A DNA stretch of 64,000 nucleotides from positions 67,236-131,235 of the forward strand of contig JAOAGR010000004.1 in the NCBI GenBank assembly GCA_026415655.1, given 5' to 3'. The notes under the pieces were generated by a model, which worked only from the letters and a program-made list of their open reading frames with translations, was not told the origin of the DNA and did no database searches. The stretch's first letter is position 1; every line of letters starts with the position of its first letter. The stretch is from Candidatus Dojkabacteria bacterium (lineage in GTDB: Bacteria > Patescibacteriota > Dojkabacteria > JAOAGR01). Below are positions 5,620 through 61,700 of this stretch, one piece after another. Both the position numbers and the translations under genes were made by a program.

Positions 5620-6546
5620 ATGAGGTTGTTAAAACTATATTACTTTTTGTTTCTTATATTTGTTTTGTTTTTGGGATTTGTTTCAAGTGATAATTTGGAG
5701 CTAATTCATAAAAATGAATATTTTATCTTTAACTTTCCTACTAATAACGTTTTTGTAACTTTAATTCCCATATTAAAATCTCTATTTGTAGTTAATCTTA
5801 TATCGTCCTTAATACTGTTTAAAAGATCTAAAGAAAAATATTATGATATAACGAGATTTTTTGTTTTTTCTGTATTATTGACTAATCCATTATTTCTGTT
5901 TACAAACCATAAGTATGTGCTGACTATGATAATAATTAATATGCTTTTAATATCCATGTTTTATATTTGTTATATTGTGTTAGATACACTACATATAGAT
6001 TATAAACTGGGTTTAATTATGTTTATCATATTTTTACTGTTACTAGTTTCTTCTTCCATATTGATTTTTATAGATTACAATTTAGTAAATCATTTAGAGT
6101 GGATATTGGTTATTACATTTAGTGCTTTAATTTTCTTTCTTGCGTTATTCACAAAAAATTATATAACTTTGTTATGTTTATCTGTAGGTCTATTGATCAA
6201 GATAATAAGTTATGTATTGTTGAATATTCAGAATTTATCTGTGGATAGGTTTTTTATACAATTTCCTGACTTTTATTTCTATGATATTGTTCTAATTTCA
6301 ATGATTGGTTTCTTTTTTACATTTAACCAATCTCAAGTAAAAGTGTTAAGATCAATTAATGATATTATTGCAGGTTTAGCATATTCTATTGTTGCTGCAG
6401 TAATTTCAGTATATTTTTTAGTCAGTTTAGACAGATCTCATGCGTTTGTTATTTTTATGTTACCAATATTATTTGTATTTGTGACAGTATTTGATTACTT
6501 TTTATTTTTATATTCTAGTGTCTTATATTTATTAGATGATAAATAA
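5620..6546 (+). CDS. Hypothetical polytopic membrane protein, paralog B of the 4373..5128 product.
   Basis: 308 aa. Collinear similarity to ORF 4373..5128 (see that entry). Confidence 0.55.
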   Translation: MRLLKLYYFLFLIFVLFLGFVSSDNLELIHKNEYFIFNFPTNNVFVTLIPILKSLFVVNLISSLILFKRSKEKYYDITRFFVFSVLLTNPLFLFTNHKYVLTMIIINMLLISMFYICYIVLDTLHIDYKLGLIMFIIFLLLLVSSSILIFIDYNLVNHLEWILVITFSALIFFLALFTKNYITLLCLSVGLLIKIISYVLLNIQNLSVDRFFIQFPDFYFYDIVLISMIGFFFTFNQSQVKVLRSINDIIAGLAYSIVAAVISVYFLVSLDRSHAFVIFMLPILFVFVTVFDYFLFLYSSVLYLLDDK

Positions 6547-36583: not shown

Positions 36584-36676
36584 GGAGAGATACCCAAGTG
36601 GCTGAAGGGGCGGGTTTGCTAAACCTGTAGTAGGGGGAAACCCCTAGCGAGGGTTCGAATCCCTCTCTCTCCGCCA
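36584..36676 (+). tRNA. tRNA-Ser, anticodon GCT, long variable arm, CCA encoded.
   Basis: Manual fold: GGAGAGA-TA-CCC-AAGTGGCTGAA-GGG-G-CGGGT-TTGCTAA-ACCTG-[TAGTAGGGGGAAACCCCTAGC]-GAGGG-TTCGAAT-CCCTC-TCTCTCC-G-CCA. Confidence 0.85.
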
Positions 36677-38113
36677 ATCGGAACGGGCTTTGTTTTGAGC
36701 GAGTATGTCAAAGGGTTCGATCCAGTCCCAATGCAGTTTTTTATCCATCAAAACAAAGTTCGAGCCGACAATATTCAAGAGTAACTTCCTATCCATACTA
36801 TCCCCTTCACTGAATGCCCAGAATGCCTGATTAGCGACAATTATCAGTCCTTCAAAATGTTCGACCCATTTGTTTTCGGCTTTTCTACATTCCTCCAGAT
36901 TTTCGACAGCTACTAATTCATCATTTTCAATTTCAATTCTTTTTTCTTCAAAAAGTACATCATCAATTTTCTGATCAGTAAAAAGATCTACAAGTTTACG
37001 TTTTCGTTCTTGGAGTTTTCTACGTTCATTCGTCCAGTATTCCAGAGTATGAGCATGAAGATCATATTCATTTTTATTACTTTCTTTCAAAGTTCTAAGC
37101 ATTAAATCTCTAACTTCATCATCTATGGAAATACTGTCTAGTGTGTCCTGAATTTGTTTCTCCAGATCTTCAGCTCTGATGTATTTTTGCTTACATGTCC
37201 CTTTCTTTTTTGTGCACCGATAATAAGTATGTCCTTTTTGATTCTCTGCAGTAATAGCACAGCCACATTCTCCACAGGTTAAAAGACCAGTGTATGCAAA
37301 ATCTTTTTTCTCTTTTTTGAACTCATCGGGCTTTCCATTGCTTTTGATAACTTTCTGAATTTGTAAAAATGTTCCCATGCTTATCATTCTGTGGTGGTTT
37401 CCTGGATATCTCTTACCGTTATAAACCATAATTCCTGCATAAAAAGGATTTGTAAGTATTCTTTGAACCGAACTTTTTGATAATTGTTTCCCTCGAATTC
37501 CTACTAATCCCCAGCTCTTTGCTAAATCAGATATCTCTTGAAGAGTATATTTCCCTAAAGCATATGTATCAAAAATTCTTTTAACCAGATCAAACTTTTC
37601 CGGATCTGGAAGTATCTTTTTATTTACAACATCGTTTTTGTATCCTAGCAATGCCCAAGTAGGCCATTCACCATTACGGAGTTTTTCTCTAATTCCTCTT
37701 TTAACGTTTTGACTCAGATTATCAACATAATACTTAGATTGGTTAAACGCCATTCCAAGAGTGAATTTTCCTTGAGGAGTATTGTCAGCCCAGTAAGTTG
37801 GAAATTTTAACTCTTTTAAAAGTCCCACGTCCATCAAGTAAATAATTTTACCTCCATCGACAGAATTTCTAGCGAGCCTGTCTGGATGCCATGCAATTAT
37901 TCCATCTGCTTCACCTTTTTCTATCGCCAAAAGCATACTATTAAAAATCTCCCTACCTGGTTCTTTTGCTGTTTTAGACTCATGGAGAATTTTATGGACA
38001 ATCAGCTTATTCGTTTTGGCATATTCAATTAGCTCAGTTTCCTGAGCTTTAATAGACTGGATTTGCCGATTGTCTTCGTCAGTAGATTTTCTGCAATAGA
38101 TAAAGTATTTCAT
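36644..38113 (-). CDS. Large serine recombinase (integrase): resolvase catalytic domain, recombinase domain, zinc ribbon and coiled coil.
   Basis: Catalytic-domain motifs AIYCRKSTDEDNRQ..SIKAQ and DGIIAWHPDRLARN. Zinc ribbon CGECGCAI...YYRCTKKKGTC. The 3' end overlaps tRNA-Ser by 33 nt. Confidence 0.85.
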   Translation of the reverse strand: MKYFIYCRKSTDEDNRQIQSIKAQETELIEYAKTNKLIVHKILHESKTAKEPGREIFNSMLLAIEKGEADGIIAWHPDRLARNSVDGGKIIYLMDVGLLKELKFPTYWADNTPQGKFTLGMAFNQSKYYVDNLSQNVKRGIREKLRNGEWPTWALLGYKNDVVNKKILPDPEKFDLVKRIFDTYALGKYTLQEISDLAKSWGLVGIRGKQLSKSSVQRILTNPFYAGIMVYNGKRYPGNHHRMISMGTFLQIQKVIKSNGKPDEFKKEKKDFAYTGLLTCGECGCAITAENQKGHTYYRCTKKKGTCKQKYIRAEDLEKQIQDTLDSISIDDEVRDLMLRTLKESNKNEYDLHAHTLEYWTNERRKLQERKRKLVDLFTDQKIDDVLFEEKRIEIENDELVAVENLEECRKAENKWVEHFEGLIIVANQAFWAFSEGDSMDRKLLLNIVGSNFVLMDKKLHWDWIEPFDILAQNKARSDWRRERDSNPR

Positions 38114-48650: not shown

Positions 48651-49718
48651 ATGGAAGAAAACCAATTATTAAATAAATCAAAAAACCTTGCTTCCAAAGC
48701 TGATGGACTGGCTGGAGATGCTCTTGCTATGGCTTCAAACAAAGTCGCCCCTGTTGCAGGTCCAATTCTGGTTCAACTTCTGTGGAAAAATAAAATAACA
48801 ATTACCTTGGTTATATTATCAATGATACTTTTAATGTGTTTTAGCTTTGAAAGCTTATCACTTCAAGCACTGGCAGGATCAAGAGGTCTGATAGAGCAAA
48901 TTTCTGCGACTCATAAAGAGTGTATTCAGAAAGCTAAAGAAAAACATAATATTGAGTTTGAGCTTTTAGCGTCATATGGGAAAGTAATTTCTGATTTTGA
49001 CGAAAAATATATAGGGACTGGCAAAGGGTTCTTGGAAATAACGGATGCTGATTGGGAAAAGTCATCAACTGATGGTGATGAGGACGGGGAAATTGAGGCA
49101 ACAAGTATCTGCGATAATTATTTTACTCTTGCAAATATTCTGTCTCAAATCCAAGGTGACAGTGAGAAAAAAATAGATGCTTATCCATACCAGAAAAAAG
49201 CGGAAGTTAAGGAATGGTACTTGATATACAAAGGCTTGATAATGATACCTTATGGAAATCCTGTTGGATTAATAAGGTCAGATCTTGTAACCGTTTCTTC
49301 GGGCTATAACGTAGTAAGAATTATTAATGGAAAAGAGAATGTTCATAGAGGTATTGATCTTGTTCCATCCGGAAAGTGGTATGAAGAAAATCCGGGGAAA
49401 ACCTCAAAAGATTCGATAGTAAATTCAATTATTTCGGGAGATCTTTCAAATACAGTTGATGACGCTGGTGCTTTATGTTCTACAGTTACAAATGAACTTT
49501 TTAAAGTTATTAACTGTCATTGTGATTCATTTATTGCTACTGATGGAGCAAAGGTTGTTTATGGATCTCCACTTTGTTTTATGGGAACAACTGGAAACTC
49601 CACAGGCGTGCATGTTCATGTTGAGATCTCTCAAAAGGACGAGAATGGCAAATGGCAGAGGATTGATCCAACTCCTCTTGTATTTCCAGTAAATAATTAT
49701 GCAGGACAAAACCAATGA
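48651..49718 (+). CDS. M23/LytM-family peptidoglycan endopeptidase with an N-terminal membrane anchor. Probably the T4SS cell-wall hydrolase (VirB1-equivalent, PrgK/TcpG-like).
   Basis: M23 motifs HRGIDL and GNSTGVHVHVEI. Confidence 0.75.
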   Translation: MEENQLLNKSKNLASKADGLAGDALAMASNKVAPVAGPILVQLLWKNKITITLVILSMILLMCFSFESLSLQALAGSRGLIEQISATHKECIQKAKEKHNIEFELLASYGKVISDFDEKYIGTGKGFLEITDADWEKSSTDGDEDGEIEATSICDNYFTLANILSQIQGDSEKKIDAYPYQKKAEVKEWYLIYKGLIMIPYGNPVGLIRSDLVTVSSGYNVVRIINGKENVHRGIDLVPSGKWYEENPGKTSKDSIVNSIISGDLSNTVDDAGALCSTVTNELFKVINCHCDSFIATDGAKVVYGSPLCFMGTTGNSTGVHVHVEISQKDENGKWQRIDPTPLVFPVNNYAGQNQ

Positions 49719-50490
49719 AAAAATTAAAATTCTGGATAAGTCTTTGCAACAGGGCTTTTCACAGATTCCAAGACCGGTACTTAAAGCCAAAGGACTTTCC
49801 AGAAATGCAAAATGTCTTTATGGGCTTTTGCTTGATTATGCCTGGCAAAGCGGAAGTTGCTTTCCTGGACAAAAAAGATTGGCAGAAGATCTGGATGTAT
49901 CAGAGCGAAGTATTCAGAGAGATCTTGAAGAACTTCGGGACTTTGGGCTTATCAAGTGGATTAGACGTGGTTATCAAATGACAAATGAATATCAGATTTT
50001 ATCTTTGGATTTTTTACTTCAATCAGATATGTCAAAAACGTCAGATCAAGAGGTGACAGATCTGGCTTCTCAAGAGATGACAGATACGTCGCACAAAGAA
50101 TATAACGTTGAAAATACCCAGAATAAAAATACTCAGTCGTCAACGTTGGAAACGAAAACGAATAATTTAAATCTTTTTGACAAGGAAGCAGTTGAACTTG
50201 CAACAGAATTAAACGATCTCAAAAGCATTCGGTTTTATCAGAAAATAATTAATCAAAGAAATAAAGGGGAAATCGCAATTGAAGATTTTAATACCGCTCT
50301 TGAAGATACACGAAGAGTTAAAAGATGTGATGAAGTCGATGGTACAAACTTTTTAAAAAATCCTGCTGGTTGGTTTGTTTCTGTTTTACAGAAACTCACC
50401 AGACGAAGACAGGACAAACTCCGGCAGGAAGAAGTTAAAACCAAGATGGATGAATTGAAAAATAAGTTTTTAGGAAAAGCAAAACTATGA
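49699..50490 (+). CDS. HTH_36-type winged-helix protein, replication-initiator/DnaD-like, of mobile elements.
   Basis: FSQIPRPVLKAKGLSRNAKCLYGLLLDYAWQSGSCFPGQKRLAEDLDVSERSIQRDLEELRDFGLIKW. Confidence 0.5.
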   Translation: MQDKTNEKIKILDKSLQQGFSQIPRPVLKAKGLSRNAKCLYGLLLDYAWQSGSCFPGQKRLAEDLDVSERSIQRDLEELRDFGLIKWIRRGYQMTNEYQILSLDFLLQSDMSKTSDQEVTDLASQEMTDTSHKEYNVENTQNKNTQSSTLETKTNNLNLFDKEAVELATELNDLKSIRFYQKIINQRNKGEIAIEDFNTALEDTRRVKRCDEVDGTNFLKNPAGWFVSVLQKLTRRRQDKLRQEEVKTKMDELKNKFLGKAKL

Positions 50491-53075
50491 GTCAGGAGTT
50501 AATAGAAAATTTAATAAAGTTTGCATTCATTTCTTTGAGCATAAGTTTAATTTTTACACTAAACTATTTTCGCAAATTATATTTTGCAAAAGTCAGAGCA
50601 AAAAAAGAAAAAGGATTTCTGATACAGATTATTCCACCCAAATACCAACTGGAAGATGCGGATCAAAGAGGAGTGCGTTTTGCTCTACAACGATTTATCG
50701 ATAATTTAACAGCAAGCGTAAAAGATTCCCGAATCTCTTTAGAAATTTTTGCTGATAATTCGGAGATTAACTTTCTGGTATGGACACCTAGTAAAAAGAT
50801 CGCTGAACTGGTTAAGCTTAATTTATACAGTACTTACAATGACCGAATAAAAATTAAGGACGTAGAAACTGATCCAATCAATTCTTTTTCCGTTGATTCT
50901 GTTGTGAACGAATATAAAACCTCCAAGCATGATATTTACATGCTTATGGATCTTAAAGACTTTGAATCTGTAGATCCAGTCCAAGATATTTTGGGAGCAA
51001 TGAGGGGACTTCAAAATGACGATAAGCTTTTATTCCAAATTACAATTAAGCCATCAAAACTTGACGTAATTGCATTACAAAAAGCAAAAGAGAATTTCCG
51101 ACTCCGTAGATCAGAAATAACCTGGCTGGAATTATTCCTGCAAAAAATCAGTTCGTATTTGATTTATTTTGTGCCACTTTTACCAATTTTTATTATAAAA
51201 ATATTTGGTGGAATTCTAGCTTTTTTTAAAGGAGGAAATATAAACCAAGATCCAATCTTTTTGCTTCCTGATAGTGATCCAAGGAAAGTACTTGTTGAGA
51301 AAGAAGAGTTAAGTAACTTTAACAGCCGAATATCAGAAAAATATAAAACTTCATTTTCTACGAATATTAGAGTTATTGCTGAGGGTGAAAGAAAGGACAT
51401 TTTGCTTGATGGATTTGAGCAAGCTCTCGAATCCATGAAATCAGAAACTCAAAACAGACTTATCCGTAAACATAAAAGCAATTCCTTTGATTTGCGAACC
51501 CGGCTTGTTTATCCAGAAGATTCCCTTTTCCCTTTTTACAAAGAACTTTGCACTTCTCAAAATACACTTTACTCAAGGGAAATTTCTATGATCTACCATG
51601 TGCCTTTTAAGATTGATGATCCGGTGATAACAAGCTTTGCCTCTCCTGACCTGCCAGCAAAAAAACTTTTTAAAGATAAAGTTAATATTTCTGATCTTTA
51701 TATTGGAATTAACAAATCCAGAAATATTGAATCAAATGTTTTTTTAAGTGAAGAGAATCGTAAAAGACATATTGTAATAAACGGTCAAACCGGAACAGGA
51801 AAATCCACCATTATGAAAAACTTTGTTTTGCAGGATATTGATGAAAACTTGATTGGACAAAATAAGCGAGGTTTAATGCTGATGGACCCGCATGAAGATT
51901 TCTTTATTGATATTTTAGAAAGACTGCCAGAAACGGAAATGAATTTAGAAAAGTTTATTGCCTGGGATACAACAAGCGAGGAATATTATTTTGGATTTAA
52001 TCCACTTTATGCAGTAGGGCTTACAGAACGGGAAATTGACTTAATTGTTGACTCGAATTTTAAACTGATAGAAAAAGTAATCCGCAGGATTAATCCAGAA
52101 TCAGGAATGGGTATGACCGGAAAGCCAATGCTGATAAATGCCATGAAAACCCTTATGGTTTTTCAAAATGAATGGCTGGAGAAAGTTGGAAATACAGATG
52201 CAAACGTAGAAATTATCAAGAAACATGCACCAACACTTCTTGATGTACGTAGTTTATTTATCAGTGACGAAGAATGCTCGACAATTCTATCTTTTATTCC
52301 ACTGGAAAAATATGAAGGACTCAGGACTTTCTGGGAAGATATTCTGCCCAATTACAAAGAATCACAAAATTGGTCAGAAATCAGACAAGGTTTTGATAAC
52401 AAAATTTCTCAAATTCTTACTGGTATTTTGTTTTTCACATTTGCTCAAAGTCAAAGCTCGATAGAAATATCAGAAATTATTCGGGAGTCAAAAATACTGC
52501 TTGTAAATTTGTCATCTAAAAATATTGGTGAAGAAGGTATGGGACTTCTTGGATCACTTCTTATGTCAAAGGTCTGGTTTGAGGCAAAAAAGATAGAAAA
52601 AAGTAAACGTAATCCATTTGTTGTTTATGCTGATGAATTTCAGAATTTTGCTAACAGTGATTTTGCCAGTGCATTATCTGAAGCAAGAAAATTTAAACTT
52701 GAACTTATACTTGCTCATCAATTCTTTCAGCAACTTCCCGAAGAAGTCTTTCACGCAGTTATGGGTAATGTAAAAACAAAAATTTATTACAGATGTGGAC
52801 TTGAGGATAGCGAAATGATTGCAAAAGAATTGCAGGGAAGACTTCTTCAAAATGAAGTCATGGAGATTCCGGAATTTCATGCAAATATTAAAGTCGGTGA
52901 GGATGTGTTTTCTGTCTATGTCCCTGTGGAAAGGAAACCAACAAAGAGTGAAATTGCAGTCCAAAAAATAGTCGAAGATTCGTATAAAAAATATGGGCGA
53001 ACAAGGCTTTCTGTAGAACAAAATATCATCAATAGAAGGAACTGGTTCAGGGACGGATGTGAGCCATACGGGTAA
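50487..53075 (+). CDS. Type IV coupling protein (VirD4/TraG/TcpA-like ATPase) with an N-terminal membrane region.
   Basis: N-terminal TM helices. Walker A INGQTGTGKSTIMKN. Walker B FVVYADEFQNFAN. 862 aa. Confidence 0.7.
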   Translation: MSQELIENLIKFAFISLSISLIFTLNYFRKLYFAKVRAKKEKGFLIQIIPPKYQLEDADQRGVRFALQRFIDNLTASVKDSRISLEIFADNSEINFLVWTPSKKIAELVKLNLYSTYNDRIKIKDVETDPINSFSVDSVVNEYKTSKHDIYMLMDLKDFESVDPVQDILGAMRGLQNDDKLLFQITIKPSKLDVIALQKAKENFRLRRSEITWLELFLQKISSYLIYFVPLLPIFIIKIFGGILAFFKGGNINQDPIFLLPDSDPRKVLVEKEELSNFNSRISEKYKTSFSTNIRVIAEGERKDILLDGFEQALESMKSETQNRLIRKHKSNSFDLRTRLVYPEDSLFPFYKELCTSQNTLYSREISMIYHVPFKIDDPVITSFASPDLPAKKLFKDKVNISDLYIGINKSRNIESNVFLSEENRKRHIVINGQTGTGKSTIMKNFVLQDIDENLIGQNKRGLMLMDPHEDFFIDILERLPETEMNLEKFIAWDTTSEEYYFGFNPLYAVGLTEREIDLIVDSNFKLIEKVIRRINPESGMGMTGKPMLINAMKTLMVFQNEWLEKVGNTDANVEIIKKHAPTLLDVRSLFISDEECSTILSFIPLEKYEGLRTFWEDILPNYKESQNWSEIRQGFDNKISQILTGILFFTFAQSQSSIEISEIIRESKILLVNLSSKNIGEEGMGLLGSLLMSKVWFEAKKIEKSKRNPFVVYADEFQNFANSDFASALSEARKFKLELILAHQFFQQLPEEVFHAVMGNVKTKIYYRCGLEDSEMIAKELQGRLLQNEVMEIPEFHANIKVGEDVFSVYVPVERKPTKSEIAVQKIVEDSYKKYGRTRLSVEQNIINRRNWFRDGCEPYG

Positions 53076-53113
53076 TTATTGTACTAGAACAGTTATCCAG
53101 TAAATAGCTCTTA

Positions 53114-53289
53114 AAAAACTTAACCTCTTATCTTATTTTTCTCATCCCCTTGCGATCCCTGCTCTCGTCATTTTGTGAGTGGGTGGACTTTCACGAAAGC
53201 CCACCCACTCACTTCCTCGACCATGGATTTGATGTGTATATTTAACACATACAAACGGGGGATGAGATATGGGGGGAGGTTAAGTTTTT
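53114..53289. repeat. Nested inverted repeats in the T4CP/Replic_Relax intergenic region, an oriT candidate. Outer pair AAAAACTTAACCTC / GAGGTTAAGTTTTT. Middle pair TCTCATCCCC / GGGGATGAGA. Core 38-nt GC-rich hairpin GTGAGTGGGTGG-A-CTTTC-AC-GAAAG-C-CCACCCACTCAC at 53175..53212.
   Basis: Read directly. The core hairpin is not followed by a T-tract, so it is not a canonical terminator. GC-rich in an AT-rich context. Confidence 0.5.
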
Positions 53290-53307
53290 AGGGTAATTAA
53301 TATAAAT

Positions 53308-54192
53308 ATGAAAAAAATAAGATTAAATAAAAATCAGATAGAGGTATTAAAAATTATTCAGAGTTTTAGGTATATTCCAATGAAGGTATTGATGAAGATT
53401 GTATTTGAGAGGGAAGTTTATGGGCATTTATCGGGACTGAGTAGAGGACTTCATAGATTGGAATATTCTGGATTAATAAAAAGTTTTTTATACGGTAATA
53501 ATTGGAAAGTAGTTTTTATCACGAAAAAAGGAGCAGAAAGCTTAGCTCTGGAATCAGGAATTCCAATTAAAGATATTTCCATTCCAAATCTAAGCCACAA
53601 AGTAGGTTTTGCCACTCTTGAGCATACAGTAAAAATAGCCAACCTTTATCTCGAACTCGCAATGGAAATACCCGCATTTCCAGATTTCTCACTAATAGAA
53701 TGGCTAGGAGATCAACAGGTATTTTTGCAGTACAAATTCCGTTCAGTAAGAAATGGAAAAACAATAAAAAGAAATCTGGCACCGGATTCTTTTTTCCTGC
53801 TTCAAAAGGATGGAGTCAATAAACCTTACTTTCTTGAATACGATACCGGTACTATGGACAGGGAACAGCTTGTACAAAAATTCCTGCGGTACTTTGAATA
53901 CTTTGTTTACGGGGAGTGGAGAGAAAAGTTCGGGACTTTTCCTTCAATTCTTTTCTTGACGGAAAGAAAAGAACAATCAATGCAAAAGTATTTGCAGGAG
54001 CCGGAAATTCCTTTGGAAAAAGCTCTTGCTCTAAGATCCAAATTTTCTGACTCCTCAAATATTGTCTGGAAGGCAATAGGCATGTCAGAAAATATTAAAA
54101 GCATAAATTCCAAAGAAATTTATGACTTTTTAAAAACTCAAATTATTTTTAATTATACAAATCAATCATGGACAAAAGAATTATTAAAATAA
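53308..54192 (+). CDS. Replic_Relax (replication-relaxation) family-like protein with an N-terminal winged helix. Candidate ICE relaxase or mobilisation protein.
   Basis: LNKNQIEVLKIIQSFRYIPMKVLMKIVFEREVYGHLSGLSRGLHRLEYSGLIKSF. Size and N-terminal wHTH are consistent with PF13814. Assignment from memory only. Confidence 0.45.
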   Translation: MKKIRLNKNQIEVLKIIQSFRYIPMKVLMKIVFEREVYGHLSGLSRGLHRLEYSGLIKSFLYGNNWKVVFITKKGAESLALESGIPIKDISIPNLSHKVGFATLEHTVKIANLYLELAMEIPAFPDFSLIEWLGDQQVFLQYKFRSVRNGKTIKRNLAPDSFFLLQKDGVNKPYFLEYDTGTMDREQLVQKFLRYFEYFVYGEWREKFGTFPSILFLTERKEQSMQKYLQEPEIPLEKALALRSKFSDSSNIVWKAIGMSENIKSINSKEIYDFLKTQIIFNYTNQSWTKELLK

Positions 54193-54901: not shown

Positions 54902-57070
54902 ATGCAACGAGAACAGTCAAATCATGCAAATCATCACGGGGTTATGCATGAAGAAAATAAAAGTGATAGTCACAGTAATCATGGACATCAAAACCACGCT
55001 ATGAAGTCTATTGAAGACATGTCATTGCTGGAAAAAGTAAAGATGAGTATGAGCATGACCATGGGGATGGATCATACAGGGCTTGCAGGCAGAGAGATGG
55101 CAAGACTTATGGAACTTGATATTAGAAATAAATTTTTCTTTTCACTCATATTCACAGTTCCGATATTCTTATACACCATGGGCGAGATGATTTTCGGGAT
55201 TATGATGCCTGAATTCATGCCAAAATCATGGCTTTTATTTTTACTAACTACTCCAGTATTTTTTTATGGTGGGTGGTTGTTTTTATACTCAGCTTTTCAT
55301 TCATTGAGATCACGAAAGCTTGATATGTCTGTACTTATTGCCGTTGGTATTGTTGCTGCATATGTATTTAGCGTAGTTTTGACTTTTATCGGTTCGGAAG
55401 AAACATATTATGAAGCAGCTGCAATGCTAATTACATTTGTACTTTTTGGGCATTGGATGGAGATGAAATCAAGACGCGGTACTACTGATGCGTTGCAGGC
55501 TTTATTCGCTTTAGTTCCAGATCAAGCCAGAATTGATCGAGATGGAAAAGAAACTATCGTTGCAACCGATGAGGTAAAGTTAAATGACATCATAATTTTA
55601 AAACCTGGTGATAAAGTCCCTGTTGATGGAGTCGTGACTGAAGGTGAGACATCTATTGATGAATCTCTAATCACTGGCGAATCAATCCCTGTAACAAAAA
55701 AAGTGGAAGACCGAGTAGTGGCAGGATCAATCAATCAGACCGGTTCAATTAGATTTAAAGCAACTCAAGTCGGTCAAGATACTGTTTTAGCAAATATTGT
55801 TAAGTTGGTTGAAACCGCACAGAATTCAAAAGCACCGGGTCAAAGAATTGCGGATAAATTTGCTGGTTATCTAGTAGTGTTAGCAGTAGGCAGCGGATTA
55901 CTAACATTTGCTGTTTGGTACTTTCTCGCAGGTGAGCCAGTTCTTTTTGCACTGACATTTGCCATATCAGCAGTAGTTATCGCTTGCCCTGACGCTCTCG
56001 GTCTTGCAACTCCAACAGCGGTTGCTGTAGGTACAGGGATTGGTGCTAAACATAATATTTTAATTAAGGATGCACCTACTTTAGAACAGGTTTCTAAAAT
56101 TAAGGCAGTTGTTTTAGATAAAACTGGAACATTGACAGAAGGAAAGCCTAAAGTTGTGAGGGTTCAAACAGTTGAAGGCTTTTCTGACGCTGAAGCTATA
56201 AGAATTACGGCAATCGCAGAGCAAGGTTCTTCACATCCATTGAGCAAATCAGTACTAGATTATGCTGATGCAAATAATATTGCAATTAATTCTAAAGCCC
56301 AAAACTTTAAGAATTTGGCGGGTTTAGGTATTGAAGCACAAGTTGACGGTAAGAACATACTCGTTGGTACTAAAAAATTGATGAAGCAAAGAGATATTAA
56401 TATTGATGCTTTGGATTCGGTTATAAAAGATGCACTAGCTGGAGGAGAAACTATTATGATTCTCGCAATAGATAATAGTGTTAAAGCAGTAATTGGAGCG
56501 GCAGATCCAATCAAAGAGACCGCAAAAACTGCTATTTCAAGGCTCAATTCTATCGGAATCGAAACAATTATGATAACAGGAGACAATGAACGTACTGCTG
56601 AGATTGTATCGAAGAATTTAGGTATAAGTCGTTATTTCGCTGAAGTTATGCCGGAAGACAAAGCAGTATTTGTTAAGAAGCTTCAGGATGAAGGTAAGTT
56701 TGTTGCAATGGTTGGTGATGGAGTGAATGATGCTCCTGCTCTTGCTCAGGCAAATATTGGAATTGCAATTGGTGCAGGTACAGATGTGGCTGTAGAAACC
56801 GCGAAAGTCGTACTTATGAAGTCAGATCCAGAGGATATCTCAAGAGCAATTATACTTAGCAAAGCAACTGTACGTAAAATGAAGCAGAATCTTTTTTGGG
56901 CCTCCATTTATAACATTCTTGCAATCCCAATTGCAGCAGGTGCTTTATATCCTAGTTTTGGTATATCACTAAGACCTGAAGTTTCTGCATTACTGATGAG
57001 TGTATCATCAATAATTGTTGCACTAAATGCTGTTTCTTTAAGATTTGTATCTGCAAAGTTAAAGTCATAA
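54902..57070 (+). CDS. P1B-type heavy-metal-translocating ATPase with a His/Met-rich N-terminus and a non-canonical CPD transmembrane motif.
   Basis: TGES, DKTGTLT, and GDGVNDAPAL motifs. IACPDALGLATP in place of CPC. N-terminal HANHHGVMHEE..HSNHGHQNH..MSMSMTMGMDH. Confidence 0.85.
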   Translation: MQREQSNHANHHGVMHEENKSDSHSNHGHQNHAMKSIEDMSLLEKVKMSMSMTMGMDHTGLAGREMARLMELDIRNKFFFSLIFTVPIFLYTMGEMIFGIMMPEFMPKSWLLFLLTTPVFFYGGWLFLYSAFHSLRSRKLDMSVLIAVGIVAAYVFSVVLTFIGSEETYYEAAAMLITFVLFGHWMEMKSRRGTTDALQALFALVPDQARIDRDGKETIVATDEVKLNDIIILKPGDKVPVDGVVTEGETSIDESLITGESIPVTKKVEDRVVAGSINQTGSIRFKATQVGQDTVLANIVKLVETAQNSKAPGQRIADKFAGYLVVLAVGSGLLTFAVWYFLAGEPVLFALTFAISAVVIACPDALGLATPTAVAVGTGIGAKHNILIKDAPTLEQVSKIKAVVLDKTGTLTEGKPKVVRVQTVEGFSDAEAIRITAIAEQGSSHPLSKSVLDYADANNIAINSKAQNFKNLAGLGIEAQVDGKNILVGTKKLMKQRDINIDALDSVIKDALAGGETIMILAIDNSVKAVIGAADPIKETAKTAISRLNSIGIETIMITGDNERTAEIVSKNLGISRYFAEVMPEDKAVFVKKLQDEGKFVAMVGDGVNDAPALAQANIGIAIGAGTDVAVETAKVVLMKSDPEDISRAIILSKATVRKMKQNLFWASIYNILAIPIAAGALYPSFGISLRPEVSALLMSVSSIIVALNAVSLRFVSAKLKS

Positions 57071-57121
57071 AATTAGAAGAGGGATGATATGTCCTTTTAC
57101 TATATTAATAACAACATTAAT

Positions 57122-57165
57122 TTGATTTGTAGTAGTTTCGTGATATAATTGTATAACGTGTACGT
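57122..57165 (+). promoter_or_regulatory. Promoter TTGATT-16-TGaTATAAT followed by the operator-like near-palindrome TAACGTGTACGT (ACGTGTACGT) upstream of the cupredoxin-like gene.
   Basis: -35 at 57122-57127, extended -10 at 57141-57149, and motif at 57154-57165. The same 12-mer in the opposite orientation occurs upstream of copZ at 58013-58024. Confidence 0.4.
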
Positions 57166-57188
57166 CCCATATAGGTATTTAAATTATA

Positions 57189-57668
57189 ATGTCTAAAAAA
57201 AATAAAAAAAAAAGTATTAGTGAGCAGATAGAATCCTCTGCAAACTTAAGATCTGATGATTCTGGAGCCGCAAAAATATTTTTTATTGTATGTGCTGTGT
57301 TATTAGTTGTTTTAATTGGTGGAATGTTTGTATTTATGGGAGGCGGAAGTAGTGATGATGGTTCAGTACAAGGTACTCAGACAGCTTCAGTAGATGAAAG
57401 TGGTAAACAGGTAATTAATATAACTGCAAAAGGTGGATACAAGCCAGGTGTTGTAACTGCTAAAGCAGGACAACCGTCACTTTTAAAAATCAAAACAAAT
57501 AATTCTTTTGACTGTTCAAGAGCATTTATGATTCCTGACCTCAAAATTAGCAGAAATTTACCCCCAACCGGCGAAACTGTAATTGAAATACCTGCTCAAG
57601 AAGCAGGAAAAGAACTAGAAGGCACATGTAGTATGGGAATGTATTCGTTTAAAATGAAATTCGTTTAA
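57189..57668 (+). CDS. Membrane-anchored cupredoxin-like/Met-rich putative copper-binding protein.
   Basis: TM anchor, then GGYKPGVVTAKAGQPSLLKIKTNN...C...GTCSMGMY. Located in a cop context. Confidence 0.45.
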   Translation: MSKKNKKKSISEQIESSANLRSDDSGAAKIFFIVCAVLLVVLIGGMFVFMGGGSSDDGSVQGTQTASVDESGKQVINITAKGGYKPGVVTAKAGQPSLLKIKTNNSFDCSRAFMIPDLKISRNLPPTGETVIEIPAQEAGKELEGTCSMGMYSFKMKFV

Positions 57669-57673
57669 TATTA

Positions 57674-57946
57674 ATGATGAAACACAAAGAATCCAGTCAA
57701 AAAGAAAAATCAATCCTTGCATCTAAAAAAGCTGCAGGTACAGTAAAGAAAATTATAGAAATGCTTGAAGAAGATCGGTATTGCATTGATATTATTCAAC
57801 AGATTGATGGAGCCATCGGGCTCTTAAAAAGTGCAAGAAATCAAATCCTAGATGATCATTTTGATCATTGTTTGCTTGAAAAAATTCAAGAAGATAAGGA
57901 AAAAACTTTGGATGAACTAAAAAAGGTTTATAGAATAAGTAACTAA
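57674..57946 (+). CDS. csoR: CsoR/RcnR/FrmR-family metal-sensing transcriptional repressor (Cu-type C-H-C ligands).
   Basis: EDRYCIDIIQQIDGAIGLLKSARNQILDDHFDHCL. The conserved Cys, His and Cys align with CsoR. Confidence 0.8.
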   Translation: MMKHKESSQKEKSILASKKAAGTVKKIIEMLEEDRYCIDIIQQIDGAIGLLKSARNQILDDHFDHCLLEKIQEDKEKTLDELKKVYRISN

Positions 57947-57957
57947 TGTGAATTGTT

Positions 57958-57990
57958 AAGTCAACGAAATTAAGGCGTTGACTTTTTTTA
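57958..57990 (+). terminator. Rho-independent terminator after csoR: a 9-bp perfect stem AAGTCAACG / CGTTGACTT, a 9-nt loop, and a T7 tract.
   Basis: Read directly: aagtcaacgaaattaaggcgttgacttttttt. Confidence 0.7.
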
Positions 57991-58024
57991 GATATGTTAT
58001 AACATATACCCCACGTACACGTTA
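57978..58024 (+). promoter_or_regulatory. TTGACT -35 hexamer (inside the terminator's descending stem) and the operator-like motif ACGTACACGTTA upstream of copZ.
   Basis: TTGACT at 57978-57983. The 12-mer at 58013-58024 is identical to the reverse complement of 57154-57165. Confidence 0.35.
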
Positions 58025-58036
58025 GATCAAAAACAT

Positions 58037-58264
58037 ATGAATAATTACAAAATACAAATCAAAGGAATGCATTGCAACGGATGCAAAAATTTAATTCAAA
58101 TGTCGCTGGAGGATGAGAGTCTGCAGAATGTTTCTGTAAATCCAGAGACAGGATATGCGAACTTTAATACCGATTTATCAGAGGAAGATACCGCAAAAGT
58201 ATTAGAAAAGGTATTTGCAGAACTTTCTGACTATTCTTATTCAAATTTAGAAAAGGTGGATTAA
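58037..58264 (+). CDS. copZ: HMA-domain copper chaperone CopZ-like.
   Basis: The GMHCNGC (MxCxxC) motif in a 75-aa protein. Confidence 0.8.
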   Translation: MNNYKIQIKGMHCNGCKNLIQMSLEDESLQNVSVNPETGYANFNTDLSEEDTAKVLEKVFAELSDYSYSNLEKVD

Positions 58265-58271
58265 AACAAAT

Positions 58272-59330
58272 ATGTCAAAATTATTAACAATATCAATTGC
58301 CACTGTCACTTTTATAACAGGTGTCGGACTTGGCTATATAATTACCCCTCAGTATGCAATGTCTAATACAGAGAGTGCTGCTATGGTAGGAGACTTTGGA
58401 AAGGCAGATAAATATGTCGACCAAAGGTTTATCAATGCAATGATAAAACACCACTTAGGATCGATTGACATGGCTAAACAAGCTCAAACAAACTCTAGCA
58501 GAGATGAAATTAAGTCCATGGCTAATGACATCATTACTGTTCAACAAAAAGAAGTAGATCAGTTATATCAATGGAAAAAGGATTGGTATAACGATACTTC
58601 AAAAGTTAAACAAGGCGAAAAAGTAAACTTAGGGTCTGCTGGCGATAAATTTGATCTTAGATTTATTAATGCAATGATTGCACACCACTCTGATGCAGTG
58701 ATGATGGCTCAGGATATCCAAAAGAAATCAACTAGAGATGAGGTTCTCCAGCTTGCTGACGAAATCATTACAGCTAAGTCAGGTGAAATAAAAGCAATGG
58801 AGGACTGGAGATGGGCTTGGTATAACATTTCAACAACCACTTCAATGAATGATGGTAGCGGAATGTTAGGAACTGCTGATGAAAGATTTGATCTAAGATA
58901 CATTAACGAAATGATTTCTCATCATCAAGGTGCAATAGCACTAGCAAGACAGGTAGAAAAAACCTCACATCGGAAAGAAATTCGGGATCTCGCAACTATG
59001 ATTATAAAAGAAGAACCTAAGTCTATTGAGGAGTTATATGCATGGAAGAAGGCTTGGTATAACGATACAACAAAGGTTGCAGAACCAAAGGTGGCAAACT
59101 TAGGATCGTATGATGAAAAACTTGATTTAAGATTCCTGAACGCACTAATTGCTCATCATGATGCAGGAATTATGATGACAAAAGAAGCTAGACTAAAAAG
59201 TGCTAGAAATGAAGTTTTAAATAATGCGGATAGCACAGAAATGTTCTTTGTGACAACAAAGAAAACTTTTGAACAGTGGCGATCAGAATGGTACTTAACA
59301 CCAACATCTACACCTGCACAGCAGATGTAA
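58272..59330 (+). CDS. Secreted DUF305-family protein with four DUF305 repeats (tandem duplication). Associated with copper resistance.
   Basis: Four repeats of D.RF(I/L)N.MI.HH..A..MA: DQRFINAMIKHH, DLRFINAMIAHH, DLRYINEMISHH, and DLRFLNALIAHH. Has a signal peptide. Confidence 0.75.
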   Translation: MSKLLTISIATVTFITGVGLGYIITPQYAMSNTESAAMVGDFGKADKYVDQRFINAMIKHHLGSIDMAKQAQTNSSRDEIKSMANDIITVQQKEVDQLYQWKKDWYNDTSKVKQGEKVNLGSAGDKFDLRFINAMIAHHSDAVMMAQDIQKKSTRDEVLQLADEIITAKSGEIKAMEDWRWAWYNISTTTSMNDGSGMLGTADERFDLRYINEMISHHQGAIALARQVEKTSHRKEIRDLATMIIKEEPKSIEELYAWKKAWYNDTTKVAEPKVANLGSYDEKLDLRFLNALIAHHDAGIMMTKEARLKSARNEVLNNADSTEMFFVTTKKTFEQWRSEWYLTPTSTPAQQM

Positions 59331-59354
59331 TTTTAATTCTAAGCATATAAACAC

Positions 59355-61700
59355 ATGGAAAACATAACAATACCAGTAAAAGGAATGCATTGCGCGAGCT
59401 GTGCTACAACAATAAAAAAAGTTTTAGAGAAAGTTGGAGGTGTAGGTAAGTGTGATGTGAACATCGCGACAGAAAAAGCAAATATAGAATATGATAGAAA
59501 TCAAGTAAGTTTAGAAACATTATCTAATAAACTGACACCTTTTGGTTATTCACTTGCTATCCCTGCCTCCTCAACGCCTGCACTAAGCACAAAAGCAGTA
59601 GAAAGCCATCAAATGGCTGATGGAACTTTAATGACTGCCAATGAGCATGCTGAGCACTTAGGAACAAATCAAAGCAAAGAGGAAAAACTTGCTGAACTTC
59701 AAGAGCAGAAAGAAAAAGTTGATTTTGTAATGCCGATAACGGTATTTACATTTGTAACAATGATGTGGGAAATTCTTGCGAAAACATTTGATTGGTTTCC
59801 TAGATATTTCATTCCAATGGAGTTAAATAATATTATTGTATTTGCTCTAGCATCAATAGTCATGTTTTGGATCGGTAAGCCGTTTATAGACGGTGTAGGA
59901 AGATTCATAAAGCATCGGATTGCAAATATGGATACATTGATAGGTATAGGAACTTTAACAGCGTACTTCTACAGTTCTGTTGTCGTTCTAATGCCGCAAG
60001 TTAAAGCGTTTATGGGGCTTCCTGAAACTACTTACTTTGATGTAACAATCGTAGTAATAGGATTTATTATTTTAGGAAAGTACCTAGAAGCGAGGTCAAA
60101 GTTAAGAACAGGAGAAGCAATTGAGAAGTTGGTGAACTTGCAGGCAAAAACAGCACTTGTTGAAAGGGATGGAAAAGAAATAGAAGTGCCTATAGATCAA
60201 GTTGTTCTTGGAGACTTGATTATTGTTAAGCCTGGCACGAAAATTCCTGTAGATGCAGAAATAGTTGAAGGAAAGTCGTCTATTGATGAGTCAATGGTTA
60301 CTGGAGAACCTATTCCAGTTGATAAACAAAGCGGTGACTCTGTAATTGGAGGTACAATCAATAAACAAGGTGTATTAAAGATTAAGGCAATAAAAGTTGG
60401 CTCTGAAACACTTCTTGCTCACATTATTAAAATGGTAGAGAACGCTCAAGGATCGAAAGCACCAATCCAGAGACTTGCTGATTCAATTTCAGGGGTATTT
60501 GTTCCAATTGTTCTGGTAATTGCAATATTAACACTGATTTTATGGATTGTATTAGGTCCGCAATTTCTAGGATTAGAACTATCTGAAGCGATTTCTCTTG
60601 GACTATTATGTTTTGTCGGAATACTTGTTATTGCATGTCCTTGTGCACTTGGTCTTGCAACGCCTACAGCAATAATTGTTGGAGTCGGTAAAGGTGCTTC
60701 AAATGGAATTTTGATTAAAAATGCAGAAAGCCTTGAAAAACTACATAAAGTAAAAGTTGTTGTAGTGGATAAAACAGGAACAATTACAAAGGGGCAGCCT
60801 GAAGTTACTGATGTTATCTCAACAACTCACTTAACTGAAGAAAAAGTATTGTCTTTAGTCGGTTCACTGGAAAAAAACTCCGAACACCCACTGGCTATAG
60901 CTATCATGGATAAGGTTAAGGCTTCAGGAGTTGAACTTTCATCTGTTGATGATTTTGAAATTATCGAAGGAAAAGGTTTGAAAGGAAGCATTCACGGAGA
61001 AGAGATATATGCTGGAAACTTGAAACTACTTGCGGATCTGAATCTTCCTTTTGATCGATCAAGAATTGATACATTAGCAAGTCAAGGAAAAACACCCGTT
61101 GTTCTTACAACAAGAAGTGAAGTGCTCGCGATTATTGCAATTGCGGATACTATAAAACCAGAAGCAATCGAATCAGTAAAAGCACTTCATAAGCTAGGAG
61201 TAAAAGTAGCCATGCTTACAGGTGATAATAAAAATACAGCTCGATATATTGCAGATCAGGTCGGAATTGATGAGGTTTTTGCAGAAGTCTTACCTTCTGA
61301 AAAGGCTGATAAGGTTATTGAATTACAGAAAAAAGGTCTGGTTGTTGCTATGGCTGGCGACGGTGTAAACGATGCTCCCGCTCTTGCTCAGGCAGATGTA
61401 GGCGTAGCAATGGGAACAGGTACGGATGTAGCAATTGAATCAGCAGATATCACTCTTCTTCATGGAGACATATCAAAATTAGCAAAAGCAATAAAGCTTT
61501 CTAAAAAAACAATGCGAACTATTAAGCAGAATTTGTTCTGGGCATTTATTTACAATGTAGTAGGCATTCCACTTGCTGCAGGTATATTCTACCCATTCTT
61601 TGGACTGCTGCTAAACCCAATATTTGCAGGGCTTGCAATGGCATTCTCTTCAGTATCGGTTGTCACAAACTCACTTAGATTAAAAACTGCCAAAATATGA
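59355..61700 (+). CDS. copA: Copper-exporting P1B-1 ATPase CopA with an N-terminal HMA domain.
   Basis: GMHCASC, TGEP, IACPCALGLATP, DKTGTIT, and GDGVNDAPALA. Confidence 0.9.
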   Translation: MENITIPVKGMHCASCATTIKKVLEKVGGVGKCDVNIATEKANIEYDRNQVSLETLSNKLTPFGYSLAIPASSTPALSTKAVESHQMADGTLMTANEHAEHLGTNQSKEEKLAELQEQKEKVDFVMPITVFTFVTMMWEILAKTFDWFPRYFIPMELNNIIVFALASIVMFWIGKPFIDGVGRFIKHRIANMDTLIGIGTLTAYFYSSVVVLMPQVKAFMGLPETTYFDVTIVVIGFIILGKYLEARSKLRTGEAIEKLVNLQAKTALVERDGKEIEVPIDQVVLGDLIIVKPGTKIPVDAEIVEGKSSIDESMVTGEPIPVDKQSGDSVIGGTINKQGVLKIKAIKVGSETLLAHIIKMVENAQGSKAPIQRLADSISGVFVPIVLVIAILTLILWIVLGPQFLGLELSEAISLGLLCFVGILVIACPCALGLATPTAIIVGVGKGASNGILIKNAESLEKLHKVKVVVVDKTGTITKGQPEVTDVISTTHLTEEKVLSLVGSLEKNSEHPLAIAIMDKVKASGVELSSVDDFEIIEGKGLKGSIHGEEIYAGNLKLLADLNLPFDRSRIDTLASQGKTPVVLTTRSEVLAIIAIADTIKPEAIESVKALHKLGVKVAMLTGDNKNTARYIADQVGIDEVFAEVLPSEKADKVIELQKKGLVVAMAGDGVNDAPALAQADVGVAMGTGTDVAIESADITLLHGDISKLAKAIKLSKKTMRTIKQNLFWAFIYNVVGIPLAAGIFYPFFGLLLNPIFAGLAMAFSSVSVVTNSLRLKTAKI

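Follow-up and report, generated by a model that had tools for sequence, protein, structure and literature searches.

Between the gene of a coupling-protein-like (T4CP-like) ATPase and that of a candidate relaxase, the stretch of DNA studied here (64,000 nucleotides, referred to below as the window) carries a GC-rich hairpin enclosed in nested inverted repeats. What is the role of such an element? The initial annotation proposed that it is an origin of transfer (oriT). The comparative evidence presented below supports this interpretation, and we consider it probable that the element is the oriT of an integrative conjugative element (ICE) from Patescibacteria (CPR), processed by the adjacent relaxase of the MOBC (Replic_Relax) family.

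The host element and the genes flanking the hairpin

The host of the conjugative element is an ultra-small bacterium of the CPR/Patescibacteria. In the window, the ICE extends from about 36.6 kb onward. It encodes a large serine recombinase, a LexA-like repressor, a DUF11 surface protein, VirB6-like, TcpE-like and VirB4 proteins, an M23 peptidase, an HTH_36 protein and an 862-aa T4CP-like ATPase. In addition to the structured element, it also contains genes for a Replic_Relax protein, a sortase and copper-resistance cargo. The combination of the recombinase, the LexA-like repressor, the VirB6-like, TcpE-like and VirB4 proteins, the M23 peptidase and the sortase is a gene set typical of monoderm ICEs. 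The cargo region (54902-61700) is one of metal resistance. It codes for two P-type ATPases, of which the second belongs to the copper-exporting type, as well as for a cupredoxin-like protein, a CopM-like metallochaperone and a metal-sensing repressor of the CsoR type.

At its 3′ end, the recombinase gene (36644-38113, minus strand) overlaps a convergent tRNA-Ser gene (36584-36676). We observed the same layout in a small element devoid of a relaxase gene (L044, 6110-7691), where the 3′ end of the recombinase gene overlaps a tRNA-Glu gene. These overlaps suggest that CPR elements integrate into tRNA genes by means of serine recombinases. The HTH_36 winged-helix protein is encoded on the plus strand at 49699-50490 (PF13730, E 1.2e-12) and its gene is syntenic in loci L060-L066. 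It is possibly a relaxosome accessory or replication protein.

Upstream of the structured element lies the gene of the 862-aa ATPase (50487-53075, plus strand). The initial annotation named this gene T4CP and the downstream one Replic_Relax. The latter assignment holds, with a profile match above the cut-off. The former depends on TrwB/TraD/VirD4-like matches that are weak, all below cut-offs and located mainly around the P-loop. Homologues of about 860-870 aa are syntenic in every ICE-type locus that reaches that far, and the protein may represent a divergent lineage of coupling proteins.

The relaxase candidate (294 aa; 53308-54192, plus strand) matches PF13814 with an E-value of 3.8e-15 and a score of 56.9 bits against a curated cut-off of 25.3, over profile positions 2-190 of 191. 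The Replic_Relax profile represents the relaxase family MOBC (PMC5357655). MOBC relaxases are PD-(D/E)XK-type enzymes with TraX of pAD1 as their prototype (PMC5714925, PMC8152469, PMC12857230), and an N-terminal winged helix was reported for TraX (PMC12857230). The structural model of the window relaxase likewise has an N-terminal winged helix, which is MarR-like. A Foldseek search against the PDB did not recover the PD-(D/E)XK fold for its C-terminal domain. Residues D160, E177, D179 and K191 do not vary among 32 homologues of the relaxase. R194 and Y195 stay outside the invariant list: most homologues have R at position 194, and Y195 varies very little. The resulting D..ExD..K..RY motif aligns with the D..ExE..K..RY region of the relaxase of plasmid pAM373, with D160, E177 and K191 matched. 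Francia et al. (2013) are said to have identified D, ExE, K and RY as the catalytic residues of TraX. Overall similarity between the window and pAM373 relaxases is marginal (BLASTP E 0.03; hhalign probability 6%).

Nearly all homologues of the Replic_Relax protein stem from Patescibacteria (CPR) assemblies labelled Dojkabacteria, Saccharibacteria or Nomurabacteria; one is labelled Delongbacteria. A plasmid collection yielded no match for the element, for the 4.2-kb T4CP-relaxase stretch (as DNA) or for the relaxase protein, which we attribute to the distance of this lineage from sequenced plasmids.

Architecture of the structured element

The whole structured element, a candidate oriT, spans 53114-53289 on the plus strand and is built of two nested stems, P0 and P1, around two hairpins, P2 and P3. 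Three nested inverted-repeat pairs of 14, 10 and 12 bp had been described in the initial annotation, and all of them are indeed present and perfectly complementary. The outer stem P0 joins the 14-nt 5′ arm AAAAACTTAACCTC (53114-53127) with the 100% complementary 3′ arm GAGGTTAAGTTTTT (53276-53289), which ends 18 nt ahead of the relaxase start codon. The sequence of P0 is retained in the closest relative (L001), and other loci have an outer AT-rich stem of a different sequence. The closing stem P1 consists of the 10-nt 5′ arm TCTCATCCCC (53140-53149) and the 3′ arm GGGGATGAGA (53258-53267), again 100% complementary and additionally marked by covariation (see below). From P1, a 5′ junction strand (53150-53174, plus strand) leads to P2. 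Most ICE-type copies have a (G/C)TCTCGG motif here, of which the CTCTCG of the window is a variant; the strand is less conserved than the 3′ tail.

The core hairpin P2 (53175-53212) has a perfect 12-bp stem, GTGAGTGGGTGG/CCACCCACTCAC (53175-53186/53201-53212), topped by an apical mini-stem, and is a candidate recognition hairpin. The 12-mer GTGAGTGGGTGG occurs only once in the window. For the apex, the initial annotation gave a mini-hairpin CTTTC/GAAAG. The two arms are present as it described, but they are separated by merely 2 nt, so the realistic form is a stem of 4 bp (CTTT/AAAG) with a CACG tetraloop. Directly 3′ of P2 lies a 9-nt tail, TTCCTCGAC (53213-53221, plus strand), which is unpaired in the four-way junction. 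This single-stranded 9-mer, T(C/T)CCTCGAC in all but one of the related sequences, answers to the nick-site-like motif that was sought 3′ of the hairpin, and we infer that it is a candidate nic region. Inside the repeats there is one more hairpin, overlooked in the initial annotation. This is P3 (53228-53255, plus strand), which has 10 bp with one bulge and a 7-nt loop, contains ATGTGT/ACACAT and carries a TGTGTAT motif.

How unusual is this structure? Folded as DNA, positions 53100-53305 reach -41.7 kcal/mol compared with -17.0 +/- 3.0 for dinucleotide shuffles (z -8.1, 0/200), and folding as RNA gives a z of -9.3. Among 1596 sliding 200-nt windows covering the 64 kb, the element ranks first in free energy as well as in the GC-corrected residual. 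The structure is well beyond chance, and the same scan revealed no comparably structured non-coding region elsewhere in the 64 kb. The second most stable 200-nt region (53900-54140, DNA fold z -5.1) is formed by a run of local hairpins within the relaxase gene, in its 3′ third. The corresponding stretch of L001, L004, L008 and L060 is likewise unusually structured; that of L003, L011, L062, L064 and L066 is not.

P2 is followed by TTCCTCGACC, neither strand shows a T-tract and a scan for terminator-like sites gave 0, in agreement with the earlier remark that the hairpin is not a standard terminator. No promoter-like sites were found on either strand of 53114-53289, nor was any tandem or direct-repeat array found within 52900-53500. 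None of the Rfam 15 families matched at its gathering score, the best being microRNA models with 16-23 bits against the 76-95 required. The loop motif CS-6 of single-strand origins (sso) is TAGCGT; on reading the sequence of 53100-53300, TAGCG is absent. The element sits in a co-directional operon with its flanking genes and for this reason is probably also transcribed. In such a transcript, an alternative pairing is possible, as the 16 nt at 53130-53145 are 94% complementary to the relaxase start-codon region (ATGAAAAAAATAAGAT, 53308-53323). By eye, this pairing is not preserved in the closest relative, L001.

Conservation, covariation and copies without a relaxase gene

For comparison, we gathered 14 genome loci via the relaxase and 6 more via exact-protein look-ups of distant homologues, together with 44 metagenome loci retrieved with a DNA pattern for the hairpin. 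About 20 of the latter 44 were discarded, as they turned out to be unrelated GC-rich hairpins in high-GC contigs or long termite-gut palindromes. The high-GC loci (including L017, L019, L026, L036, L038, L048 and L050) carry GTGAGTGGGTGG...CCACCCACTCAC hairpins beside similar coding sequence; they are false positives of the pattern scan and constitute a family of their own. The contigs L018, L020, L052 and L055 from termite guts (GC 0.37-0.40) contain near-perfect palindromes, each about 150 nt long with a GTGACTGGGTGG hairpin at its centre, and are likewise unrelated.

The structure first noticed in a single locus proved to be conserved. In 20 of the 21 distinct loci that hold both genes, the element occupies the same gap between T4CP and relaxase, at relaxase identities down to 43%. 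The only exception is L006, in which a 54-nt deletion between two GAT triplets removes exactly the core hairpin and the tail (about 5834-5935). The other helices and both flanking genes of this locus are intact. The deletion could be a result of slippage across the palindrome, a sign of a decaying element or an assembly artefact.

When the copies were folded separately, one common plan emerged, with a closing stem P1 (often extended by an outer stem), P2, P3 and usually a small P4. What is conserved is a DNA element about 150-180 nt long with the ability to fold into a four-helix junction; in the window, its closing stem is doubled (P0 and P1). The sequences of the closing stem are wholly different between lineages. 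Arms taken from the same locus pair at -15.0 kcal/mol, compared with -8.8 kcal/mol for arms mixed between loci. In most loci, what remains after replacement of the core hairpin still folds more stably than shuffles do.

In a plain MAFFT alignment that included all copies, the outer stems came out misaligned, and RNAalifold then recovered the core hairpin alone. Instead, we used a MAFFT alignment of 10 copies that was annotated by hand and not fitted to any model. Here, 93.2% of cells are paired and 13 pairs changed on both sides, values reached by 0/500 shuffles, whereas slid controls give 26-44% of paired cells. The covariance model derived from this alignment (R1) finds exactly one full-length copy on the plus strand of each related locus searched, apart from L061, which is matched in part (model positions 36-129). 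In the window it matches 53135-53280 on the plus strand with 43.4 bits (E 2e-8). A larger alignment of 26 sequences was fitted to the covariance model, which favours pairing; it has 92.4% of cells paired and compensatory changes in 28 of 42 pairs, again with 0/500 shuffles reaching these values and with slid controls at 32-45%. The compensatory changes include all 14 pairs of P1 and 5 of the 7 pairs of P3.

P2 behaves differently in its different parts. No related locus departs from TGGGTGG/CCACCCA in its upper half. Below this, the stem covaries (GTGAT/ATCAC, GTGAG/CTCAC, GAGAA/TTCTC) and so does the tip, where CC/GG is replaced by TT/AA and others. The tail T(C/T)CCTCGAC was found in 25 of the 26 aligned sequences, L028 having TCCCTAGAC in its place. 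In most related loci, the stem or loop of P3 contains a GTGT-type motif, mostly TGTGTAT or TGTGTGT; L060 lacks it. A fixed hairpin top and tail, set in a scaffold that is conserved for its pairing alone, would fit recognition by a protein or a nick site.

The full element is not restricted to ICEs. We also observed it in 13 metagenome loci (L015, L022, L024, L025, L028, L031, L034, L041, L044-L047 and L049) and in one contig of a viral collection (L067). In the 13 metagenome loci, no T4CP, relaxase or T4SS genes were found within the available DNA stretches of 1-14 kb. Eight of them carry a large serine recombinase and eight have a Phage_rep_O-like winged-helix protein encoded downstream. Among the cargo of these small elements are restriction-modification genes; L044 also carries a reverse transcriptase. 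The relaxase-less copies are oriented variously relative to their neighbour genes, and some lie between convergent genes. One of them (L046) comes from the same activated-sludge assembly as an ICE-type copy (L053). This suggests small integrative elements that are mobilised in trans through a shared oriT, although with stretches of 1-14 kb a more distant relaxase gene is conceivable.

Function of the element and comparison with known origins

Several lines of evidence converge on the oriT reading. The element is placed directly between the genes for a T4CP-like protein and a protein of PF13814, the MOBC relaxase family, within a gene set of the monoderm ICE type. Plasmid pAM373, our positive control, has a T4CP, a nested inverted repeat and a MOBC relaxase in this order. 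The element keeps the same gap in 20 of 21 ICE-type loci, its base pairing is under selection as judged by compensatory changes, and an invariant hairpin top and tail are combined with outer stems conserved in pairing alone. Strand-symmetric folding points in the same direction, as do the relaxase-less copies and their co-occurrence with an ICE-type copy in one assembly.

Based on these features, transfer might proceed as follows. The relaxase, with its winged helix and a presumed PD-(D/E)XK-type nuclease domain, would recognise the invariant hairpin, probably when it is extruded from supercoiled DNA or exposed in a displaced single strand. It would then nick the plus strand in or near the invariant tail. 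In line with reports on MOBC relaxases, no covalent intermediate would be expected. The strand would be passed to the type IV secretion system by the T4CP-like ATPase, whose gene lies just upstream. Being located 5′ of the putative nick, the hairpin would be the last part to enter the recipient and could mark termination. Integrated elements that carry the same element and lack a relaxase would be mobilised in trans by such ICEs.

Some observations count against an oriT. A direct-repeat array of the TraX type is absent, the relaxases of the window and pAM373 are only marginally similar, the covariance model has no match in pAM373 and the structure search did not recover the PD-(D/E)XK fold. 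The element is probably transcribed and its wobble pairs lean mildly towards the plus strand. A gene for another winged-helix protein always lies near the relaxase-less copies, so the binding partner may be a different one. Finally, several hairpins within about 200 nt next to a relaxase gene are also compatible with a single-strand origin (PMC4595007).

The last point leads to a reading in which the element is an sso or another priming or loading site for complementary-strand synthesis in the recipient, alone or combined with an oriT. Its size, its several stem-loops, its place beside the relaxase gene and outer stems in which structure outweighs sequence are all reminiscent of ICEBs1 sso1 (PMC4595007), and the covariation of four helices as well as the mild lean of the wobble pairs to the plus strand would agree with such a role. 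We nevertheless find it unlikely, above all as the sole function, since the most conserved part is an invariant stem with a tail and not the loops, the folding energy shows no preference for a strand and the stems contain no promoter-like hexamers. Furthermore, the ICE would need another oriT, and the window holds no other non-coding region of comparable structure; relaxase-less elements, in turn, would gain nothing from an sso without an oriT. An Frpo-like single-stranded-DNA promoter was ruled out, as no -35/-10 hexamers occur within the stem (53114-53289, both strands). Strong covariation would also be expected of an RNA motif, and a cis-regulatory leader of the relaxase mRNA or an independent small RNA of mobile elements would account for the co-directional flanking genes, the 18-nt distance to the relaxase start codon, the possible pairing of 53130-53145 with the start-codon region 53308-53323 and the excess of G-T over A-C among wobble cells (34 vs 15, counted in the model-fitted alignment). 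Yet both strands fold about equally well, the minus strand being as good or better, which fits DNA-level palindromy better than an RNA gene, even though comparing the folding energies of the strands does not by itself tell RNA and DNA apart. An invariant 12-bp stem and 9-nt tail at relaxase identities down to 43% would be unusual for RNA stems, and there is neither an Rfam match nor a terminator. The start-codon pairing is lost, by eye, in the closest relative, and the relaxase-less copies have no downstream relaxase gene, occur in varied gene orientations and sometimes lie between convergent genes. A structured RNA is therefore quite unlikely in our opinion.

Both classes of elements encode a winged-helix protein within 0.3-3.5 kb of the structure (HTH_36 in ICEs, Phage_rep_O-like in small elements), and the 12-bp palindrome is a plausible site for a dimer. 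The structure might thus be an operator, a replication origin or a partition-like site bound by such a protein. This is very improbable, as the two proteins are barely related (hhalign probability 13%), their genes are ordered differently relative to the element in the two classes, and compensatory changes at the hairpin tip and in three other helices speak for intrastrand pairing and not just for a duplex palindrome. Least credible of all is a hairpin acting as terminator or insulator between the two genes, or a miniature transposable insertion bounded by terminal inverted repeats, in spite of the GC-rich hairpin in an AT-rich genome and the perfect 14-bp terminal repeats. An intrinsic terminator was ruled out by the lack of a following T-tract on either strand and of any terminator-like site. 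A miniature inverted-repeat transposable element was ruled out as well: there is one copy per window and per locus, the position is syntenic across distant relatives, and the outer arms remain complementary with sequences that change from lineage to lineage, in direct contrast to ends bound by a transposase.

If the element is indeed an oriT, it would matter for several reasons. Patescibacteria make up a large share of bacterial diversity, and their widespread T4SS are currently thought to be mostly non-conjugative (PMC12102498). A conserved, precisely bounded cis element with a covariance model could serve as a marker of conjugative and mobilisable elements in CPR genomes. MOBC relaxases, which are poorly understood and have a restriction-enzyme-like fold and no covalent intermediate, could be tested on it as a defined DNA substrate, and it may help to develop genetic tools for organisms whose manipulation is very difficult. 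A bolder proposal, which we put forward tentatively and would sooner doubt than believe, is that the shared oriT family links self-transmissible ICEs with relaxase-less elements, so that some CPR T4SS are real conjugation machines serving a helper-hitcher network. According to the same proposal, the MOBC nuclease recognises an extruded four-way junction, with its invariant hairpin and single-stranded tail, instead of a direct-repeat array, and resembles a structure-specific PD-(D/E)XK resolvase more than a classical relaxase.

How does the element compare with known systems? In a survey of Patescibacteria, MOBC was the commonest relaxase class (58 of 109) and relaxase genes were often located near t4cp (PMC12102498), which is also the arrangement of the MOBC-type gene in the window. 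The survey, devoted to the T4SS of this phylum, does not mention oriT and concludes that most of these systems are non-conjugative (PMC12102498). The window element would then be a candidate cis site for the minority that are conjugative. The relaxase-less copies can be set beside the 'hitchers', a general concept of relaxase-less mobilisable elements that carry an oriT alone (PMC11389934). Like them, our copies are small, integrated and share the cis element of a conjugative element.

ICEBs1 sso1 is about 200 bp long, has three stem-loops next to nicK and depends on structure more than on sequence (PMC4595007). With this origin, and with ssoT-type origins of rolling-circle plasmids, the window element shares the nature of a non-coding stretch of about 200 nt that forms multiple stem-loops beside a relaxase gene, in sso1 likewise that of an ICE. 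Unlike sso1, which is located downstream of the relaxase gene and is strictly orientation-specific, it lies upstream of the gene, contains an invariant hairpin with a tail and shows no strand preference in folding.

The closest counterparts are oriT2 of pAD1 and the oriT of pAM373, two pheromone plasmids of Enterococcus faecalis with the relaxases TraX and Orf8. Both oriTs are cited as having inverted repeats (PMC5587640). In pAM373, we observed a T4CP gene, 5.5 copies of a 12-nt direct repeat, a nested inverted repeat of about 146 nt with an apical mini-hairpin (z -14) and a Replic_Relax gene. This order in a characterised MOBC plasmid agrees with the earlier remark that the position of the window element is classical for an oriT. 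What the two kinds of elements have in common is a non-coding gap between the coupling-protein and Replic_Relax/MOBC genes, a large nested inverted repeat (about 146-176 nt) whose apex forms a G-rich mini-hairpin, and a relaxase with an N-terminal winged helix. In pAD1, TraX binds to the direct-repeat array; its site consists of five direct repeats at a distance of 70-120 bp from the nick, and no covalent intermediate is formed (PMC12857230). The 12-nt repeats next to the inverted repeat of pAM373 have no equivalent around the window element, where the same tool found none within 52900-53500. Moreover, pAM373 folds as one long hairpin and the window element as a four-helix junction, their sequences and models are not detectably similar and their relaxases are marginally alike. 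No transfer origin has been described for Patescibacteria (PMC12102498). Judging from sequence comparison, we think it likely that the present element is a MOBC-type oriT from this phylum with a variant layout, in which a four-helix junction occurs without direct repeats. The pAD1 and pAM373 origins belong to plasmids, whereas this one is part of an integrated element with a host among the Patescibacteria.
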